Source of the DNA: Clostridia bacterium
GTDB lineage: Bacteria > Bacillota > Clostridia > UMGS1883 > UMGS1540
Length of the DNA: 59,982 bases
NCBI GenBank assembly: GCA_045648645.1
Contig: JAZROH010000122.1
Coordinates: forward strand, 1 to 59,982
Reading direction: 5' to 3'
Shown here: positions 2,514-41,709 of the stretch, in pieces
Numbering within the stretch: position 1 is the stretch's first letter
How the letters are laid out: the number at the start of each line of letters is the position of its first letter
Translations under genes and position numbers: made by a program
Notes under the pieces: model-generated
Database searches by the model: none
What the model was told of the DNA's origin: nothing
Seen by the model: only the letters and a program-made list of their open reading frames with translations

Positions 2514-3635
2514 TTGAAAACAAAGCAGCTTATAAAAATCGGTGTTTTTGCCGCACTTTTCTATCTTTTTATGTATTACTGGGATAAAATGGCGGGCTTT
2601 ATCAGCGCGGTGCTTGGGGCGGCGGTGCCGCTCTTTATCGGCGGCATGATTGCGTATCTTGTCAACATCTTAATGCGGTTTTATGAACGGCACTATTTCC
2701 CGAAAAAGAAAAAGGGCTTCCCCGTAAAGAGCCGCAGACCTGTTTGCATGCTGGGCGCGTTCCTGACCCTCATAGCCATTCTTGTTTTCGTGGTCAGTTT
2801 AATCGTTCCACAGCTTGTTTCCTGTGTACAGCTTCTTTTGTCCGCTGTACCGGGGCTGATTGAAAAACTAGTCGCATGGGCGGGAAGTCTGAATCTCTTT
2901 TCAGAGGAAACCTTTCAAATTCTGCAGGCGTTTGATTGGAAATCCCGCATCGGAGAAATTGCGAGGGTGCTTACAAGCGGTGTAGGGGATGTAATGAACG
3001 TGGTGTTAAATATTATTACCTCCGTAATCTCCGGCACGGTAACGGCATTTTTAAGCATTATTTTCTCGATTTATCTTCTCGGCTCGAAGGATAAAATCGG
3101 AAGGCAGATAAAGAGAGCCGGCAGACGGTATCTGCCGGGCGCTGTGTACCGGAAAGGCGGCTATGTGGTGCGGGTTTTGGATGATGCGTTCCATCGCTAT
3201 ATCGTTGGCCAGTGCACGGAAGCGGTTATCCTCGGCGCACTCTGTACGGTCTTTATGCTTCTCTTTGGGCTTCCATATGCCACCATGATTGGCGCACTCA
3301 TTGCCTTTACGGCACTCATTCCCGTTGCCGGTGCTTATATCGGCGCAGGGCTTGGCGCACTTATGATTTTGTCTGTTTCCCCGATTGAAGCACTTGTTTT
3401 TCTTATGCTCGTCTTGGTGCTGCAGCAGCTTGAGGGAAATTTGATTTACCCCAAAGTGGTAGGGGCTTCCATCGGACTTCCGGGCATCTGGGTGCTTGCG
3501 GCAGTCACCATTGGCGGCGGTATTCTCGGTATTTTCGGGATGCTTCTCGGCGTACCGCTTGCCGCAGCACTCTATCGCATCGTGCGGGACGATGTAAACG
3601 GTACAGCACCGATATTGCCGCATCCAAAAAAATAA
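2514..3635 (+). CDS. AI-2E family transporter (PerM/YhhT-like permease)
   Basis: 373-aa multi-pass membrane ORF with the family-typical C-terminal EGNLIYPKVVG motif. The start codon is TTG. Confidence 0.8.
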   Translation: MKTKQLIKIGVFAALFYLFMYYWDKMAGFISAVLGAAVPLFIGGMIAYLVNILMRFYERHYFPKKKKGFPVKSRRPVCMLGAFLTLIAILVFVVSLIVPQLVSCVQLLLSAVPGLIEKLVAWAGSLNLFSEETFQILQAFDWKSRIGEIARVLTSGVGDVMNVVLNIITSVISGTVTAFLSIIFSIYLLGSKDKIGRQIKRAGRRYLPGAVYRKGGYVVRVLDDAFHRYIVGQCTEAVILGALCTVFMLLFGLPYATMIGALIAFTALIPVAGAYIGAGLGALMILSVSPIEALVFLMLVLVLQQLEGNLIYPKVVGASIGLPGIWVLAAVTIGGGILGIFGMLLGVPLAAALYRIVRDDVNGTAPILPHPKK

Positions 3636-3655
3636 AAAGCATATGAAAGTATGAA

Positions 3656-3694
3656 GGAGCTGTAGCAAAATGGAATTCATTTTGCTACAGCTCC
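3656..3694 (+). terminator. 17-bp perfect hairpin downstream of the AI-2E gene
   Basis: GGAGCTGTAGCAAAATG-gaatt-CATTTTGCTACAGCTCC followed by TTTGGGG. The T-run is weak. Confidence 0.5.
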
Positions 3695-3706
3695 TTTGGG
3701 GTGGAC

Positions 3707-3938
3707 GAAAAATAGCTCAGATTGGACAAACTGAGCCAACAAAGCCCATTTTTGGGGCTTTGTTGGGTTACCCGAAGGCGTACGATGGTACGTCAAGAGG
3801 CGAAGTTTGTTCAAAACACATGGCGCTTTATAATAGAAATTCGTCAAATGACGAATTATTCCTGTATTTTAACATTTTTAGTTGCAATAAAATGGCTTTA
3901 TTAAACGTTTCTTTTGCCTTGTGTGGTGTGAGCATTTT
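3707..3938 (+). repeat. unclassified structured intergenic element, copy A
   Basis: Shares invariant blocks (CAGATTGGACAAACTGA; CCCGAAGGCGTAC; GAAGTT) and four helices that keep pairing while changing sequence with the copies at 16049-16270(-) and 39545-39750(+). Confidence 0.85.
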
Positions 3939-3953
3939 GCTACACCTCCATTC

Positions 3954-4526
3954 TTATTCTTCCGGTTTTGTTTCCAGTTTAATTTCGTAATCGCCGAGGT
4001 GTTTTACCTTAAAAGCGTTTTTCTTATATTCCGCGTAGTCGAAAGCCTCCAGCTCGTCAATGGCAAGCTTATGGAATTCATAAAAGTTATGCCACCATTC
4101 GTAATCGGTGCCGAGGTCAGCTGTTAGAAACGCATCGGCAATGTCACAGCCCATTTTGGGGGCTACGTAAAATGCGCCCATCGCAAGGACATTTACGCCG
4201 TTGCCGGTGATGGCACGTCTTGCCGCGGGTACGCTTTCCACAACACCTGCGTGTACATGCGGGCATTTACTTGCCGCAATATGGATGCCCATGCCCGTAC
4301 CGCAAAAGAGAAGTGCCCGCTCAAATTCGCCCTCGGAAATCATGGAGCCGACGCGAAGACCTATGCGGTGGAACATCAAATCCGTATCGTCATCCTCCGG
4401 CGAGCGTACGCCCACATCCGTTACGGTCCAGCCCTTTGCCTTCAGGTGCTCTACAACCGCCTCTTTGAGAGGAAAGCCTGCAAAATCAGCACCTACCAGA
4501 ATTTGCTTATCCTTTATTGTTTTCAT
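3954..4526 (-). CDS. RpiB/LacA/LacB family sugar-phosphate isomerase with about 40-aa C-terminal extension
   Basis: 190-aa ORF. ILVGADFAGFPLKE...CGTGMGIHIAASK matches the RpiB-type fold. The RBS AAGGAGG lies upstream. Confidence 0.75.
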   Translation of the reverse strand: MKTIKDKQILVGADFAGFPLKEAVVEHLKAKGWTVTDVGVRSPEDDDTDLMFHRIGLRVGSMISEGEFERALLFCGTGMGIHIAASKCPHVHAGVVESVPAARRAITGNGVNVLAMGAFYVAPKMGCDIADAFLTADLGTDYEWWHNFYEFHKLAIDELEAFDYAEYKKNAFKVKHLGDYEIKLETKPEE

Positions 4527-7129: not shown

Positions 7130-8302
7130 TTAATCGTAACGCAGTGCGTCGATGGGATTGAGGCGGGATGCTTTCCTTGCAGGGAAGTATCCAAAGCCAA
7201 TGCCGATGGCGGCGGAGACGGAAAAGGCAATCAAAATAGAGGGGACAGATAACGTAAACGGAATACCGATAAGCTTTGCCGCAAAGGATGCTCCGCTTGC
7301 GCCCGCCAAAATACCGATAATGCCGCCGATGCCACTCGTTACACACGCCTCCACCAAAAACTGACCGAGAATATCCCACGGCGTTGCACCGAGAGATTTT
7401 CGAATACCGATTTCGCGCGTTCGCTCCGTTACCGATACCAGCATAATGTTCATTACACCGATGCCGCCAACGAGAAGAGAAACGGCGGCAATGCCTACGA
7501 GCATTGTGGTCATCATGCCAATAAGTTTATTAAGCTCTTCAATAATGGCAGCCTGGTCTATTAGCGTATAATAATCGTCAGAACTAAATTTCTCCAGCAG
7601 AAATGCTTCTACAATTTCTTTTGTTTCATCAATGGTATCCTTTGTGGAGGCACTAACGCTGAAAGAACGGATGTTGCTTCCGGTAAGCTGTTTTGCTGTT
7701 GTGTACGGAAGGAGAAGCGTGTTATCGGCACTGGAGGCAGTGCTTGTGCCCTTTTCCTCTAAAATACCAACGATCCGAAAGGCGTAGCCGTTTACATACA
7801 CCGTTTTATCTAAGGGGTTTTCTCCGTCAAACAGCTCTTTGACAAGATACGTGCCCACAACACAGTTTTTGCATCGTTCATTTATGTCCGCATATGTCAG
7901 ATGTCTGCCAATCTGCACATTCAGCTGTTTGATTTCATCATAGTCCTCATTCACACCCGTAGCTTGCATAGAAATGTTTTCGTTGCCGTTTTTAACGGTT
8001 GCATTAAAGGATAGGGAGGGGGATATGTAGCCGATAACGTCCGGATTATCAAGCACTAATTCCTGCATTTCTTCGGGGCTTACGCTTCGATTGCCGCCGC
8101 GACCGGAAATGCTTACTGTGATAAGATTTGCGCCCATATCCTCAAAGGTTGCAATAACATAATTTGTAAGACTGGACATAAGGCTTACAATAATGATAAC
8201 TGCCGCAACGCCGATGATAATACCAAGCATGGTAAGGAAGGAACGCATTTTACTTGCACCGAGGCTTTTCAGCGCAAGACGCAGGGATTGCCGCAGGTTC
8301 AT
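7130..8302 (-). CDS. ABC transporter permease, FtsX/MacB family
   Basis: 390-aa ORF. It has an N-terminal TM, a large extracytoplasmic domain, then a C-terminal FtsX-type 3-TM block (REIGIRKSLGA motif). Confidence 0.85.
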   Translation of the reverse strand: MNLRQSLRLALKSLGASKMRSFLTMLGIIIGVAAVIIIVSLMSSLTNYVIATFEDMGANLITVSISGRGGNRSVSPEEMQELVLDNPDVIGYISPSLSFNATVKNGNENISMQATGVNEDYDEIKQLNVQIGRHLTYADINERCKNCVVGTYLVKELFDGENPLDKTVYVNGYAFRIVGILEEKGTSTASSADNTLLLPYTTAKQLTGSNIRSFSVSASTKDTIDETKEIVEAFLLEKFSSDDYYTLIDQAAIIEELNKLIGMMTTMLVGIAAVSLLVGGIGVMNIMLVSVTERTREIGIRKSLGATPWDILGQFLVEACVTSGIGGIIGILAGASGASFAAKLIGIPFTLSVPSILIAFSVSAAIGIGFGYFPARKASRLNPIDALRYD

Positions 8303-14468: not shown

Positions 14469-14499
14469 AAAAAGCCGAGGAACAATCCTCGGCTTTTTC
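14469..14499. terminator. bidirectional intrinsic terminator between convergent genes
   Basis: AAAAGCCGAGG-aacaat-CCTCGGCTTTT with A/T runs on both sides. Confidence 0.75.
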
Positions 14500-14511: not shown

Positions 14512-16020
14512 TTATTTTACAATTAAGCTTTCGCCTGTCATTTCTTCCGGTTTTTCCAGATGCATAAGCTCGAGCATGGTCGGTGCAATATCTGCAAGGC
14601 GACCGTCTTTGCGAAGCGCTACGTTTCCTGCGCCCGCCACGAGAAGGGGAACGGGGTTTGTGGTGTGTGCGGTGAAGGGGCTGCCGTCTTCGGCGTACAT
14701 GCAATCTGCATTGCCGTGGTCAGCCGTTACAAGCGCGATACCGCCCTTTGCCAAAATGGCATCTACAACTTCGCCCACGCAGGCATCCACAGTTTCTACT
14801 GCGCGCACGGCACAGTCAAACACACCGGTGTGCCCAACCATGTCACAGTTTGCAAAGTTTAAGATGATAACATCCTGCTCGGTAAGACGGGCAAGAACAG
14901 CATCTTTAACTTCTACTGCGCTCATTTCAGGTTTCAAATCGTAGGTAGCAACCTTGGGAGAAGGAATCAGAACGCGGTCTTCGCCTTCGGCTGTTTTTTC
15001 TACGCCGCCGTTAAAGAAAAACGTAACGTGTGCATATTTTTCCGTTTCGGCAATGCGAAGCTGTGTGTAGCCCTTTTCGGAAATATAATCTCCAAAGGTG
15101 TTTGTCAGCTTCTGGGGTTTGAAAGCTACATCTACGTTCGGCATGGTTGCATCATACTGCGTCATGCAGATGTAGGTGAGGGGGAAGAACTTGCGGGTAA
15201 AACCGCTGAAATCCGGGTCCACAAAGGCGCGGGTGATTTCACGGGCGCGGTCGGGGCGGAAGTTGAAGAAGATAACGCTGTCATTTTTCTCAATCTTACC
15301 GGCGTCTGTGGTGGCGGGAACGATAAATTCGTCCGTAACCTCTTCTTCGTAGGAAACGCGTACATATTCAGCAGGGTTTTCAATCTTTTTGCCCTTACCG
15401 CGGGTCATAACCTCGTATGCTTTTTCTACTCTGTCCCAACGGTTGTCGCGATCCATGGCGTAATACCGACCCATAACGGTGGCAATTTCGCCAACGCCGA
15501 TACGCTTCATTTCGGCTTCAAGGGCTTCTATGTAGCCGGCACCGGAGGTGGGGGATACGTCACGTCCGTCGAGGAGGGCGTGTACATACACCTTGGTAAG
15601 ACCATGGCGCTTTGCCATTTCGAGCAAACCATACAGGTGTGTGATATGGCTGTGCACACCGCCATCGGACAAAAGCCCGATAAGGTGGAGCGCAGAGCGG
15701 TTTTCCTTGCAGTTTTCCATGGCGGAGAGAAGGGCGCTGTTTTCAAAAAAATCGCCGTCTGCAATGGATTTTGTGATACGGGTCAGTTCCTGATATACAA
15801 TTCTTCCGGCACCGATATTTGTGTGACCGACTTCGGAATTACCCATTTGTCCTTCGGGCAGACCTACGTCCATACCGCTTGCCTGAATGTCTGTGTGCGG
15901 GTAGGCGGCGAAAAGACGGTCGATGTTCGGGGTGTTTGCTTTTGCGATTGCGTTGCCGGCATTTGCGGGCGCTGTGGCAAAGCCATCCATGATGATCAGC
16001 GCCATGAGTTGTTTATCCAA
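14512..16020 (-). CDS. gpmI: 2,3-bisphosphoglycerate-independent phosphoglycerate mutase
   Basis: 502 aa. MGNSEVGHTNIGAGR and the C-terminal ADHGNA motif are characteristic. Confidence 0.95.
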   Translation of the reverse strand: MDKQLMALIIMDGFATAPANAGNAIAKANTPNIDRLFAAYPHTDIQASGMDVGLPEGQMGNSEVGHTNIGAGRIVYQELTRITKSIADGDFFENSALLSAMENCKENRSALHLIGLLSDGGVHSHITHLYGLLEMAKRHGLTKVYVHALLDGRDVSPTSGAGYIEALEAEMKRIGVGEIATVMGRYYAMDRDNRWDRVEKAYEVMTRGKGKKIENPAEYVRVSYEEEVTDEFIVPATTDAGKIEKNDSVIFFNFRPDRAREITRAFVDPDFSGFTRKFFPLTYICMTQYDATMPNVDVAFKPQKLTNTFGDYISEKGYTQLRIAETEKYAHVTFFFNGGVEKTAEGEDRVLIPSPKVATYDLKPEMSAVEVKDAVLARLTEQDVIILNFANCDMVGHTGVFDCAVRAVETVDACVGEVVDAILAKGGIALVTADHGNADCMYAEDGSPFTAHTTNPVPLLVAGAGNVALRKDGRLADIAPTMLELMHLEKPEEMTGESLIVK

Positions 16021-16048
16021 AATTACTCTTCCTTTCTATTAAGATGTC

Positions 16049-16270
16049 AAAAAATGCACATACCGCACAAAGCAAATTTTTTTTAAAACCATTCGAAAAT
16101 AAGTTCCGAAGAGAAAATGTAAAATTCGTTTAAACGAATTTTCTTTTTTTGTTGCTTTGTGCTTTGAACAAACTTCACCGCTCGACGTACCTATGTACGC
16201 CTTCGGGCACGGTAAAACAGGGCGTTTACGCCCTGTTTTACTTCAGTTTGTCCAATCTGCACTATTTTTT
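16049..16270 (-). repeat. unclassified structured intergenic element, copy B (inside the tpiA-gpmI spacer)
   Basis: The reverse complement aligns block-for-block with copy A. The hairpin sequences differ but remain self-complementary. Confidence 0.85.
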
Positions 16271-16297
16271 TACATCCTTATGCATTCCTTGCTCAAA

Positions 16298-17047
16298 TTA
16301 GCTGTTGGCGATGACGGTGAAGTCGTCTGCCTTAAGGCTTGCACCGCCGACAAGACCGCCGTCGATATCGCTGCAAGCAAAGAGTGCTTCGGAGTTGCCT
16401 GCGTTTACGCTGCCGCCGTAGAGAATGCGGATTTTATCTGCAACTTCTGCACCGTACAGTTCGGAAACGAGAACACGGATTGCAGCACAAACTTCATTTG
16501 CCTGTTCGTTTGTGGCGGTAACGCCTGTACCGATAGCCCAAATGGGTTCGTAGGCAATAACGAGGGATGCAGCTGCATCTGCGGGAACATCCTTTAATGC
16601 CTTCTTCATCTGCATGCGAATCCATTCGATGGTGATACCGTCTTCGCGCTGTGCAAGAGTTTCGCCACAGCAGATAACGGGGCAAAGACCGTATTCGAGG
16701 GCTTTTAAAACCTTCTTGTTTACGGTTTCATCGGTTTCGCCAAAATATTCACGTCTTTCGGAGTGACCGATAATAACATGGGTAACACCCATTTCGCGAA
16801 GCATGCCGGGGGCTACTTCACCGGTGAATGCGCCTTTATCTTCAAAATACATGTTCTGTGCGCCAACCATGATTTTGGTACCTTCTGCAGCTTTGAGTAC
16901 TGCATCGAGGCAAACGTACGGCGGGCAAACGAGAACATCGTTTTTAGCGTTTGCTGCCTTTGCGGCTAAATCCTTCATAAGTTCTGCGGCTTCTGCGGGG
17001 GTTTTATTCATCTTCCAGTTGCCGGCTGCGAGTTTTGTTCTGCTCAT
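16298..17047 (-). CDS. tpiA: triose-phosphate isomerase
   Basis: 249 aa with [15 protein letters not shown] and [10 protein letters not shown] motifs. Confidence 0.95.
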
Positions 17048-19487: not shown

Positions 19488-19493
19488 CAAAGA

Positions 19494-19731
19494 AAAGCAA
19501 TGAATGGGAGAGTAGGCAGAAGGTACCTTTCCGAGAGAAAAAACGCCGTCGGCTGGAAGCGTTTTAAGGGGAAATCTGCTGAAGTTCACCCGGGAGCTGC
19601 GCTTTTGAACAGGCAGTAGAGAGCGCCGCGTAAGACACGTTACGTCTTAATGAAGTGCCCGCCATAGGCGGGAATTAGGGTGGTACCGCGATGTCAAGTC
19701 GTCCCTATCGATGGATAGGGACGACTTTTTG
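19494..19731 (+). promoter_or_regulatory. T-box riboswitch leader, Phe specifier (UUC)
   Basis: T-box sequence AATTAGGGTGGTACCGCG lies at 19673-19690. The terminator GTCGTCCCTATC/GATAGGGACGAC plus a T-run lies at 19698-19731. The specifier candidate UUC-A is at 19585-19588 and pheS is downstream. Confidence 0.9.
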
Positions 19732-28872: not shown

Positions 28873-29155
28873 AATTAATATGGATAAAGGCAATGAAGAG
28901 AAGGAGTACCTGTCATGGAACCCTATAGAGAGAAGCGGATGGTGGAAGCGCTTTGGCGGAAGGGCAGGGAAGTAGTCTTGGAGCTGCGGACCGAAAAGAG
29001 CAATCTTGCTTTGAGTAGACTTCGACGGAAATTCCAACCGTAAAAATGGGAAACGGCATACATGTGCCGATTGAGGTTTGTCGCGTGAGCGGCAGATGAA
29101 TTTAGGTGGTACCACGAGTCATTCGTCCTAAACGCAGGGTGAATGACTTTTTTGT
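28873..29155 (+). promoter_or_regulatory. T-box riboswitch leader, probable Val specifier
   Basis: T-box sequence AATTTAGGTGGTACCACG lies at 29099-29116. The terminator AGTCATTC/GAATGACT plus a T-run lies at 29117-29153. GUA/GUC codons sit at 28972-28977 in the specifier region. valS is the second gene downstream. Confidence 0.85.
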
Positions 29156-39450: not shown

Positions 39451-39479
39451 TTGACCCTCGGGCAAGGAAGGTATATAAT
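39451..39479 (+). promoter_or_regulatory. sigma-A type promoter upstream of element copy C and ftsH
   Basis: TTGACC, 17 nt, TATAAT. Confidence 0.55.
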
Positions 39480-39544
39480 AGAAAGAAAAGGGAATGCAAA
39501 AATATTTCTTATCCCCCCTGACCGGAGATTTCTGAGGGGATAGG

Positions 39545-39750
39545 AAAAAGATTCAGAATGGATAAAATGAGCCCGAACTGTGCTCGGGGATACCCGAAGG
39601 CGTACTGGTGTACGCCGAGCGGCGAAGTTGATTTATAGAAAAAAGGCATAAAATATGGGAAAATCTCAAATCTTGAGATTTTCCTGCATTATAGTAGTTT
39701 TTAAAATTTTTTGAACAACCAATCTATATGTAAGTGCTTGCCTTTTTGCG
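39545..39750 (+). repeat. unclassified structured intergenic element, copy C (ftsH leader)
   Basis: It carries the invariant CCCGAAGGCGTAC, the GGCGTAC-tggt-GTACGCC hairpin and GAGCGGCGAAGTT. The architecture matches copies A and B but with different helix sequences. Confidence 0.8.
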
Positions 39751-39792
39751 TTCTGGACTTTTATTACACCCCCGTTTGCATAGGAGGAAAAA

Positions 39793-41616
39793 ATGAACGA
39801 GGTCAAAACACCAAAGAAGCCACTGCTTTTTTATTATGCGATTGCAATCGGTGTATTACTGCTTTTTAATATGCTGATTACGCCGAATCTGTTCGGTGCC
39901 CGTATGGAGGAAGTGGACTACGGTACGTTTATGCGAATGACAGACGAAAAGAACATCGGGATTGTACAGATTGAAGCAAACCGAATTGTTTTCACCGATA
40001 AAACGGAAAAAATTGTTTACGAAACAGGACGCATCGAGGATGCCGGTATGGTAGACCGATTATATGCGGCGGGCGCAAAATTCGGCGGGGAAATTGTGGA
40101 GGAAGCGTCTCCGATTTTGAGCTTGCTTTTATCTTGGATTATTCCTATATTGCTTTTTGTGGGCGTAGGGCAGTTTTTATCGAAAAAAATGATGAAGAAA
40201 ATGGGCGGCGGTCCCGATTCCATGATGTTCGGTATGGGAAAGAGCCATGCCAAAATTTACGTAAAATCCTCCTCGGGCATTAAGTTTTCGGATGTGGCGG
40301 GGGAGGATGAGGCGAAGGAAAACCTTGCGGAGGTGGTAGACTATCTCCATAACCCGAAAAAGTACAGCGCCATCGGCGCGTCCATGCCGAAAGGAATTTT
40401 GCTCGTAGGGCCTCCGGGAACGGGGAAAACCATGCTTGCAAAGGCAGTTGCGGGCGAAGCAAACGTACCCTTTTTCTCCATTTCCGGCTCGGAATTTGTG
40501 GAGATGTTTGTGGGTATGGGCGCATCGAAGGTGCGCGACCTTTTTAAGCAGGCAAAGGAAAAAGCGCCATGTATTGTATTTATTGACGAAATTGATGCCA
40601 TCGGGAAAAAGCGCGACGGGCACATAGGCGGCAACGATGAACGCGAGCAGACCCTAAATCAGCTTCTTACAGAGATGGACGGATTTGAGGGAAATACAGG
40701 GGTTATGATTTTGGCGGCGACCAACCGACCCGAATCCTTAGACCCGGCACTTCTCCGTCCGGGACGGTTTGACCGCCGTGTGCCGGTAGAACTTCCGGAT
40801 TTAAAGGGAAGAGAAGAAATCCTGAAGGTTCACGCACGCAAAATCAAAGCAAGCCCGGAGATTGATTATAACGCCGTTGCGCGCATGGCATCCGGTGCCA
40901 GCGGTGCGGAACTTGCCAACGTTATAAACGAAGCGGCGCTTCGGGCGGTGCGGGAAAATCGGCGGCAGGTAACACAGGCGGACATGGAGGAGAGCATCGA
41001 GGTTGTAATTGCCGGTTACCGAAAAAAGAATGCTATTTTGTCCAATAAGGAAAAGTTGATTGTGGCATACCACGAGGTGGGACATGCCCTTGCAGCGGCA
41101 CTGCAGTCTCATTCCGCACCGGTGCAGAAAATTACAATTATTCCCCGCACAAGCGGCGCACTCGGCTATACAATGCAGGTGGATGAAGATGAGCATTATC
41201 TCCTTTCTAAGGAAGAACTTACGAACAAGATTTTGACGTTTACGGCGGGGCGTGCGGCGGAGGAAGTGGTGTTCGGCTCGGTGACAACGGGTGCGGCGAA
41301 CGATATTGAACAGGCAACAAAGCTTGCCCGTGCCATGATTTGCCGATATGGCATGAGCGAGGAATTCGGTATGGTGTGCATGGAGCAGGTGACGAATATT
41401 TATCTCGGCGGGGACGCAAGCCTTACCTGCTCGCCCGAAACGCAGACAAAAATTGACGATACTGTAGCGCGCCTTGTGCAGACACAATACGAAAAAGCGG
41501 TACAGATGTTACGGGAGAATAAACCGAAGCTGGACGAAATTGCAAAGCATCTATATGAGAAAGAAACAATTACGGGTGAGGAATTTATGGGAATTCTGTA
41601 CGCACCAATTGAATAA
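39793..41616 (+). CDS. ftsH: ATP-dependent zinc metalloprotease FtsH
   Basis: GPPGTGKT, the AAA SRH and the HEVGHAL zinc motif are present. Confidence 0.95.
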
Positions 41617-41640
41617 GGAACGGTGGAAAGCACCACAAAA

Positions 41641-41679
41641 ACCCACCTGCACTGCCTTTTTTCGGCAGTGCAGGTGGGT
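41641..41679. terminator. bidirectional intrinsic terminator
   Basis: 16-bp stem ACCCACCTGCACTGCC/GGCAGTGCAGGTGGGT flanked by A- and T-runs, lying between convergent genes. Confidence 0.8.
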
Positions 41680-41709
41680 TGAATTTTTTATATAAACCTA
41701 TGGTTACAG

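Follow-up and report, generated by a model that had tools for sequence, protein, structure and literature searches.

An apparently undescribed family of structured, strand-specific interspersed repeats in gut Eubacteriales

Proteobacteria have a well-mapped set of structured interspersed repeats (REP/BIME/REPIN, ERIC, Correia), whereas such repeats are much less charted in the uncultured Eubacteriales, which are dominant in animal guts. The REP, BIME and REPIN repeats of Proteobacteria are mobilised by RAYT (TnpA-REP) tyrosine transposases. Miniature inverted-repeat transposable elements (MITEs) and similar structured repeats include the Correia element of Neisseria, ERIC/IRU of enterobacteria, BOX, RUP and SPRITE of pneumococci and bcr1-18 of Bacillus cereus. 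Repeats of this type are 100-250 nt long, intergenic and bounded by terminal inverted repeats, are co-transcribed in either orientation and carry terminator-like modules; their presence or absence varies among relatives, and some families keep an RNA-type fold by compensatory changes. Here, three copies of an intergenic element (A, B and C) were analyzed in a stretch of 59,982 nt from a Clostridia bacterium (contig JAZROH010000122.1), the whole of which is called the window. They are copies of a large family of non-coding interspersed repeats, apparently an undescribed structured interspersed repeat of gut Eubacteriales. The leading interpretation, to which about even confidence is given, is that the element is a non-autonomous structured repeat of the REP/BIME/MITE kind which is, or recently was, mobile.

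A pattern scan of the window for the core CCCGAAGG-N16-RAGMGGYGAAGTT gave exactly three matches against 0.00 expected from 100 shuffles, and reading back the sequence placed the three copies where a first-pass annotation of the window had reported them. All six features described in that annotation are present in A, B and C, and each of its helices is real in minimum-free-energy folds, the z scores of which were -5.4 (A), -7.4 (B) and -4.4 (C) relative to dinucleotide shuffles. The places were correct but the limits were not, the elements being longer (Table 1). The 5' block (AAAAATAGCTCAG...) pairs beyond the 3' limit first given (...TGAGCATTTTGCTACACCTCC in A) and forms an outer stem of about 25 bp, absent from the annotation and here named P0, which pairs the two ends and encloses the whole element. 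Of the helices already proposed, the stem closing the junction is referred to as P1, the hairpin H1 as P2, the 7-bp tetraloop hairpin as P3, the long-range stem as P4 and the terminator-like hairpin as P5.

One strand of the element takes the shape of a Y, in which P0 leads straight into a three-way junction shared with P1 and P4. The outer part of P0 is GC-rich and variable (e.g. GGGGAT/ATCCCC), the middle pairs an A-tract with a U-tract, and the inner part is conserved (GTGCAGAAC/GTTCTGTGC) and includes G.U pairs. The first arm starts with P1 (9-10 bp), followed by tandem G.A (CUGA opposite GAAG), one R-Y pair and the optional P2, and continues with two or three C-G pairs, a second purine loop (GAA opposite GAGA or GAGC), the 7-bp P3 and a loop of 4 nt. 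The second arm is P4 (10-11 bp); its loop, usually of about 90 nt, holds P5, which starts about 10 nt past the P4 5' strand, and an AT-rich spacer of 50-65 nt after P5. Unpaired purines flanking the helices, and the bases of the junction, are invariant in the family alignment. The internal loop beside P3 had been proposed to form tandem G.A pairs, as in a K-turn or loop E. The purine loops are indeed real, conserved and of the tandem G.A kind, but the K-turn assignment was abandoned, as both loops appear from the alignment to be tandem G.A between Watson-Crick pairs with bulges of 0-1 nt and without the 3-nt bulge.

The element is about 230 nt long, with a range of 147-300 nt. P2 varies from 0 to 36 nt and is missing in, for example, loci L008, L046, L075, L080, L087 and L106, while in compact copies of 147-186 nt (L060, L049, L091, L089, L045) P4 is a plain hairpin. 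In the copy between tpiA and gpmI at L143 (3248-3678), a GC-rich insert of about 220 nt takes the place of P3, which shows that large insertions can be accommodated there. At L009 (about 4000-4300) and L095 (about 2700-3000), a second, degenerate core arm (GCCAAAGCTGTATGCGATACTGCG...) lies in tandem with the canonical one.

Covariation was assessed in an alignment of 71 copies (A2), in which P2 and the P4 loop were swapped for short linkers. The helices, said in the first-pass annotation to keep pairing while their sequence changes, do so throughout these 71 members of the family, and this is thus no accident of three sequences. Standard pairs were found in 97.5% of cells, where shuffles gave 83.0% and sliding of the partners gave 31-49%; both sides had changed in 353 cells versus 98 in shuffles, compensatory double changes occurred in 24 of the 35 predicted pairs, and none of 500 shuffles matched any of the observed covariation measures. 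An isolated pair joins the base that follows CUGA to the Y of GGYGAAG (columns 39-77); it is A-U in 32 copies and G-C in 32, and a pair of P1 (columns 27-90) is U-A in 37 and C-G in 27. The register was fixed for P1, P3 and the isolated pair, so that their counts are not circular. A pair of P4 (columns 96-132) is A-U in 31 copies, U-A in 22 and C-G in 17, counts which, like those of P0, are partly circular since the 3' strands of both stems were located by complementarity.

The fold belongs to one strand. Non-standard pairs are strongly asymmetric, with 72 G.U against 3 A.C in P1 and 45 G.U against 0 A.C in P3, and the folding strand was more stable than its complement in 71/71 copies (mean -62.3 versus -49.2 kcal/mol). 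Both the stability of the fold and its strand asymmetry are alike in all gene contexts, and this extends to copies that are antisense to both neighbours.

A loose core pattern searched against species-representative genomes identified at least 119 loci, all of which are elements except two chance coding matches (L036, L047). The hosts among the genome matches listed are all uncultured gut or rumen Eubacteriales, labelled Clostridia bacterium, Acutalibacteraceae, Oscillospiraceae, Congzhengia and Ca. Fimenecus. A metagenome scan added at least 75 clear copies and about 14 more cut by contig ends, together with about 32 chance matches from other environments. The family is abundant, with three copies in 60 kb of the window and, among the matches listed, two to three loci in several metagenome-assembled genomes (MAGs), and it is widespread in Acutalibacteraceae and Oscillospiraceae-type genomes, one of whose phages carries it as well. 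Subfamilies recur across different genomes, and two of them coexist in the window. Local multiplication is seen as tandem copies at L046 (216 nt apart) and L086 (242 nt apart), as a direct repeat of 30-76 nt of the element's own 3' part preceding 11 of 74 copies, and as near-identical copies in one MAG (L072 and L076). The phage contig L144 (IMGVR_UViG_3300029860_000340), which encodes a terminase large subunit, a P22-like portal and a capsid protein, carries two copies (cores at 2784-2820 and 7474-7510, both on the minus strand) between structural genes and in the same sense as these. In plasmid and GenBank-phage collections no blastn match to the element was obtained.

The view of the first-pass annotation that the element is non-coding and matches no known family was borne out. 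It lies between called genes, P2 ranges from nothing to 36 nt, and the reading frames differ between copies; a reverse-strand reading frame of A (GGAGG-N9-ATG, 36 codons) was considered and dropped, as C has no ATG there, B ends after 10 codons and the length of P2 varies. An Rfam 15 scan of the window at gathering thresholds returned only two T-box leaders elsewhere, and E-value scans of A, B, C and a compact copy gave at best 29.3 bits against a gathering score of 80. The invariant 13-mer to which the annotation had drawn attention was found in no indexed paper and is absent from the first 200 of the 408 supplementary files of a survey of structured RNAs of the human microbiome (PMC8040213).

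The placement of the copies relative to genes was determined by orienting each by its folding strand and calling the flanking open reading frames (ORFs), the strands of the upstream and downstream gene being given in that order. Among the genome copies listed, 34 were (+,-), 24 (-,-) and 10 (+,+), and none lay between divergent genes (-,+); for the metagenome copies listed the numbers were 19, 9, 10 and 0. The element is antisense to its downstream gene in 64 of the 75 genome copies listed, and likewise in most metagenome copies. The stop codon of that gene mostly lies 0-20 nt from the 3' end of the element (within 30 nt in 52 of the genome cases listed, within 10 nt in 27 of 37 metagenome cases listed) and is TAA in nearly all listed genome copies. 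On the strand of this abutting gene the order is stop codon, P0 arm, P4 arm, spacer, P5 hairpin and U-rich run. P0 often ends in TAAGGGG...CCCCTTA, so that the element can itself supply a TAA stop, and at L019 and L035 an ORF stops at a TAA inside the element. In the minority of (+,+) copies, which include B, C and the phage copies, the 3' end of the element is 12-54 nt before the next start codon. A strong hairpin, H0, is found within 22 nt upstream of 67 of the 120 complete copies listed, often as GGnCTGTAAAAAAAC-loop-GTTTTTTTACAGnCC, which is the sequence type of the P0 3' arm; next to copy A, the right arm of H0 is nearly identical to the P0 3' arm of that copy. As a separate abundant repeat, solo H0-type hairpins were not seen, the window holding only the one beside A. 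The neighbouring genes are functionally unrelated with diverse C-termini, and over about 240 loci no family of neighbours occurs at more than 8.

In the leading interpretation, the Y fold would be recognised or copied in single-stranded form, most simply as single-stranded DNA (ssDNA), by a factor encoded elsewhere. The element lodges at gene ends, usually directly past the stop codon and antisense to that gene, and as a side effect the abutting gene would gain a one-way intrinsic terminator made of P5 and the U-tract on the strand opposite the fold. ssDNA is favoured over RNA because the fold is equally kept where no neighbour transcribes the folding strand and because no promoter is evident: neither the AT-rich spacer nor the region upstream of P0 has a consistent -35/-10 arrangement, and promoter scans matched at the level of shuffled sequence. 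The family stands out in that the fold is kept on a strand which is usually not the mRNA strand of the neighbour.

The same data bear on a possible, if doubtful, alternative, namely that the folding strand yields a functional structured RNA (a protein scaffold, a guide-like RNA or a self-cleaving ribozyme) whose copies spread as passengers. HEARO RNAs offer a precedent, as they were at first described as orphan structured RNAs linked to mobile elements and have since been recognised as IscB omega-RNAs. A functional RNA would account for the strand-specific fold with G.U pairs throughout, for the very strong covariation, which extends to the isolated pair (A-U in 32 and G-C in 32 copies), and for the invariant junction bases and the invariant unpaired purines flanking the helices; an optional P2 and a variable P4 loop are of the kind seen in many RNA families, and in the (+,+) copies (B, C, phage) the folding strand is certainly part of an mRNA. 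It fits less well with the lack of a folding-strand promoter inside or just upstream of the unit, with the direction of the folding strand, which in about 80% of copies runs antisense to the abutting gene and in about one third, with the fold equally kept, to both neighbours, and with the finding of neither a recurring protein gene nor an Rfam match.

P5 had been described as terminator-like, and a hairpin of this kind is present; its U-tract, however, lies on the opposite strand and not on the folding one. In a consensus scan P5 was terminator-like only on the strand opposite the fold for A and C, and that of B did not pass. When 49 copies are read on the folding strand, A prevails in the 10 nt that precede P5 (223 A versus 139 T), and the 10 nt that follow show only a slight excess of T (187 T versus 172 A). 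P5 with this U-tract is thus a candidate one-way intrinsic terminator for the abutting gene, as predicted from base composition and the scan, and the family places such candidates at many gene ends. Selection on P5 as a one-way terminator is the best explanation for the orientation bias together with the copies within operons that face the other way.

It may be asked whether such a role is all that remains, the element being a host-domesticated 3'-end module for termination, insulation or stabilisation of mRNA 3' ends, as proposed for REP/BIME, and no longer mobile. The copies listed never lie between divergent genes and abut stop codons, P5 is terminator-like for the abutting gene, H0 hairpins with T-runs resemble bidirectional terminators, copies occupy orthologous sites across species and are stable between strains, and in operons (B and the phage contig L144) the orientation leaves P5 without a downstream U-tract. 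Nevertheless this explanation is considered unlikely: a simple hairpin does the same job elsewhere in the window, close relatives do without the element at the same site, and neither the conserved core, situated past the terminator and expected to stay untranscribed, nor a strand-specific fold on the antisense strand is accounted for.

The first-pass annotation had favoured a riboswitch-like or attenuator-like function, in which sensing of a ligand or protein by the junction would govern the terminator hairpin downstream of it. A conserved, covarying three-way junction with a stable hairpin about 20 nt later would suit this proposal, as would the position of copy C in a 5' leader downstream of a strong promoter-like site. 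The conserved, covarying core is aptamer-like, a feature common to many structured nucleic acids. The proposal is contradicted by placement, most copies lying antisense after stop codons, and is hardly tenable on other grounds as well. The neighbouring genes are unrelated, the U-tract of P5 is on the other strand, P5 is nested in the P4 loop with no anti-terminator pairing seen to compete with it, the same intergenic site is empty, decayed or occupied in the inverted orientation in congeners, and there are three copies per 60 kb.

Gain, loss and inversion were followed at the site of copy B, in the neighbourhood recA-pgk-tpiA-gpmI, for which syntenic congeners were found through TpiA homologues; this was the only empty/filled site available for comparison. 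In the window the tpiA-gpmI gap is 277 nt and contains B. Four congeners with TpiA identities of 90-92% (L139, L140, L141, L146) have gaps of 74-88 nt which are empty apart from one small hairpin (AAAAGGGAGyCTACC...GGCAGGCTCCyTT) before the ribosome binding site. In L142 (TpiA 89%) a gap of 178 nt holds a decayed remnant, and in L143 (72%) a gap of 431 nt holds the copy with the P3 insert, in the other orientation. The closest relative, L145 (94%), has a gap of 279 nt with an orthologue of B in inverted orientation: the region can be aligned to B only after reverse complementation, with about 80% identity from end to end of the element, and the P2 hairpin of B (GTAAAACAGGG...CCCTGTTTTAC) is also in L145 and in no other of about 145 loci compared. 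The flanks are fixed (CAAAAGG...CCCCTT in L145, CATAAGG...CTTAAT in the window) and match the base of the hairpin of empty sites, which indicates that the element sits inside a pre-existing hairpin and was flipped as a whole. A degenerate-pattern scan of metagenomes for tpiA 3' ends gave no matches. Presence/absence differences and inversions between close relatives are created by the element, which likely also breaks short-read assemblies and confuses gene callers and screens for non-coding RNA.

An apparent insertion hot-spot is the gap between rny and ymdB, where elements were found in six species (L101, L189, L249, L105, L257, L053) in two orientation classes. Elements of opposite orientation belong to different subfamilies, and an H0-type hairpin (L101, L189/L249, L257) is on the 5' side of the element in either orientation; the insertions were therefore independent, and H0 and the Y element behave as one unit.

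An invertible DNA switch similar to an inverton, with the P0 arms as inverted repeats for a recombinase and flipping toggling P5 for the flanking genes, would be another explanation of the element. In Clostridioides difficile, cwpV is controlled by an invertible leader switch acting through a terminator. B and its L145 orthologue, which lie between the same two genes, are one element facing opposite ways, inverted repeats of about 25 bp (P0) bound the element, and P5 is directional. A switch is nonetheless quite improbable. No element was inverted in about 15 strain pairs with flanks of at least 97% identity, although this is weak evidence as assemblies show only the majority orientation. It was the whole element, including its asymmetric arms, that was flipped and not the interior alone; the other cases of opposite orientation involve different subfamilies and hence independent insertions; and the conserved internal fold would be left unexplained. 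No invertase gene was present among the nearby flanking ORFs.

Several observations weigh against a mobile repeat of the REP/BIME/MITE kind. The outer arms of P0 vary and co-vary, which a DDE transposase binding terminal repeats would not tolerate, and the shuffle control for P0 was moderate (-23.8 versus -17.9 kcal/mol; -20 or below in 83% versus 26%). Tandem G.A, loop-E-like motifs and invariant junction bases are more typical of functional RNA than of transposon ends. No transposase or recombinase was found beside or inside any of the roughly 240 loci. No clear target-site duplication was seen, and the flanks, often TAA/TTA beside GGGG...CCCC, read equally well as an extension of the stem. 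In each of the roughly 15 near-identical strain pairs (flanks at least 97%), the element is kept and its orientation is shared, with no sign of short-term movement; movement or inversion must accordingly be rare, and this is not phase variation. Lastly, orthologous copies persist across species (A/L018, L020/L109, L026/L048), as would also fit a host function.

Searches for a mobilising factor bear on the same point. The 648 flanking ORFs were clustered without yielding a recurrent transposase-like family, the representatives not having been compared with Pfam. As to an autonomous parent element, there were no distant partners of P4 or P0 up to 4.5 kb downstream and no copy with an ORF between its ends. 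Near-identical copies with target-site duplications, given in the first-pass annotation as the sign of a recent MITE, were not observed, the copies being diverged and without clear duplication; the wider evidence nonetheless describes an interspersed repeat of mobile type.

The closest resemblance is to REP, BIME and REPIN repeats, which are likewise high in copy number, extragenic, mostly downstream of genes and able to donate a stop codon. REP termini may supply the stop codon, G.T/G.U pairs occur, and subfamilies have alternative complementary stem residues (PMC3733652). REPINs are inverted doublets which form a larger hairpin (PMC3116915). The mosaic of alternating repeats in these families has its counterpart here, in that H0 reads X then X' and the element reads X, interior, X'. 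REPs differ in being simple palindromes of 20-40 nt, whereas the element is about 230 nt long, with a three-way junction and an asymmetric, highly conserved core. The element also has no consistent GTAG/CGTC tag, RTAG preceding the inner P0 and P4 in many copies but not consistently, and no RAYT gene flanked by the repeat was found in about 240 loci of up to 8 kb each. The phyla in which GTAG/CGTC repeats are reported include no Firmicutes, and neither Firmicutes nor Clostridia is mentioned in the text of that study (PMC3733652).

With MITEs, the element shares a terminal inverted repeat (P0) and the presence/absence polymorphism seen between tpiA and gpmI. It differs in having neither a demonstrable target-site duplication nor a parent insertion sequence, in terminal repeats that co-vary, with the outer half of P0 variable and the inner half conserved, and in an internal core with two loops of the tandem-G.A type that is nearly invariant across families of Eubacteriales. 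Some mobile DNAs insert into hairpins, among them IS1397/ISKpn1 and IS110/IS1111 (including ISPpu9), which insert into REPs, and class C group II introns, which insert after terminators. The tpiA-gpmI site is similar, as the element lies inside the hairpin of the empty alleles with the flanking CAAAAGG...CCCTT kept, but those elements are autonomous with an enzyme of their own, and the repeat is without an ORF. Rfam motifs, including orphan RNAs of Clostridia and the gut, are comparable in size, three-way junction, optional stems and strong covariation, and none reaches its gathering score. The fold is far more elaborate, better conserved and more strand-specific than in other repeats of this kind.

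The nearly invariant two-loop arm and the invariant junction bases are unlike anything in REP or MITE families, and look like a specific recognition handle. A speculative and rather improbable extension is that a new class of nucleic acid in Clostridia, structure-dependent and either mobile or guide-like, has the repeat as its genomic form. The arm and junction would then be either the handle for an enzyme acting in trans (an HUH nuclease, a recombinase or an RNA-guided protein, for example) or catalytic themselves, as a new self-cleaving motif. In both cases, the variable P2 and the spacer would be free or programmable. Should there be a dedicated enzyme or RNA activity, the conserved core would be its recognition handle, and a new class of this kind would be the first system resembling REPINs or omega-RNAs to be built on a complex three-way-junction scaffold.

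The coordinates of the three copies and their surroundings are given in Table 1. A covariance model (R1), which handles large inserts poorly, was used to scan the window for degenerate or solo copies, and only A, B and C were significant; its weak, non-significant matches were ordinary bidirectional terminators with A- and T-tracts after gpmI and ftsH.

Table 1. Features of the window associated with copies A, B and C, and other structured elements identified
Feature	Position	Strand	Remark
Gene for AI-2E-type permease	2514-3635	+	upstream of copy A
H0, perfect 19-bp hairpin AAGGAGCTGTAGCAAAATG/CATTTTGCTACAGCTCCTT	3654-3696	+	just upstream of copy A
Copy A, whole element	3698-3949	+	between convergent genes
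A: P0 5' arm (GGGGTGGACGAAAAATAGCTCAGATT)	3698-3723	+	fold
A: P1 5' strand GGACAAACT, then GA	3724-3734	+	GA forms tandem G.A with GAAG of the 3' side
A: P2, variable optional hairpin	3736-3767	+	sequence, fold
A: conserved core CCCGAAGG...GAAGTT	3771-3807	+	pattern scan; contains P3 hairpin (3777-3794) and flanking purine loops
A: P1 3' strand (3804-3812), junction AAA, P4 5' strand ACACATGGC (3816-3824)	3804-3824	+	
A: P5 hairpin AATTCGTC/GACGAATT	3838-3857	-	terminator-like on minus strand
A: P4 3' strand (3916-3924), P0 3' arm (3925-3949, ...GAGCATTTTGCTACACCTCC)	3916-3949	+	fold
RpiB/LacA/LacB-family gene	3954-4526	-	downstream of copy A; stop codon 4 nt from element end
Terminator after gpmI	14469-14498		bidirectional; weak R1 match
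gpmI	14512-16020	-	flanks copy B
Copy B, whole element	16041-16279	-	between tpiA and gpmI, same sense as both
B: P0	16279-16254 / 16064-16041	-	
B: P1	16253-16245 / 16174-16166	-	
B: P2	16241-16212	-	
B: core	16207-16171	-	pattern scan
B: P4	16162-16152 / 16075-16065	-	
B: P5	16142-16121	-	
tpiA	16298-17047	-	flanks copy B
T-box leader	19491-19709	+	129.8 bits (Rfam gathering score 93)
T-box leader	28884-29133	+	106.3 bits (Rfam gathering score 93)
Promoter-like site TTGACC-17-TATAAT	39451-39479	+	near-consensus sigma-70 type, about 55 nt upstream of copy C
Copy C, whole element	39536-39773	+	probable leader of ftsH-like gene
C: P0	39536-39559 / 39750-39773	+	
C: P1	39560-39568 / 39626-39634	+	
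C: P2	39572-39588	+	
C: core	39593-39629	+	pattern scan
C: P4	39638-39648 / 39739-39749	+	
C: P5	39658-39684		terminator-like on minus strand
ftsH-like gene	39793-41616	+	
Terminator after ftsH	about 41640-41680		bidirectional; weak R1 match

The gene flanking copy A on the right is also present in L018, where a diverged copy follows the corresponding stop codon. In other species, RpiB-like homologues have different neighbours and ordinary terminators and are without the element. The RpiB-like and TpiA proteins of the window had no exact match in the public assembly collection, the closest TpiA being 94% identical, which suggests that the source species has been poorly sampled. At L120 (2574-2620), the closest RpiB-like homologue is followed by a terminator (AAGAAGGTGTACGCCTTCTT and then a T-run) with the sequence GAAGGTGTAC in it, which resembles the GAAGGCGTAC core of the element; this is probably a coincidence.

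Copy C is probably part of the 5' leader of the ftsH-like gene, because the promoter-like site of Table 1 lies upstream of it. Between that site and copy C there is a hairpin, TATCCCC...GGGGATA, which uses the P0 5' arm.

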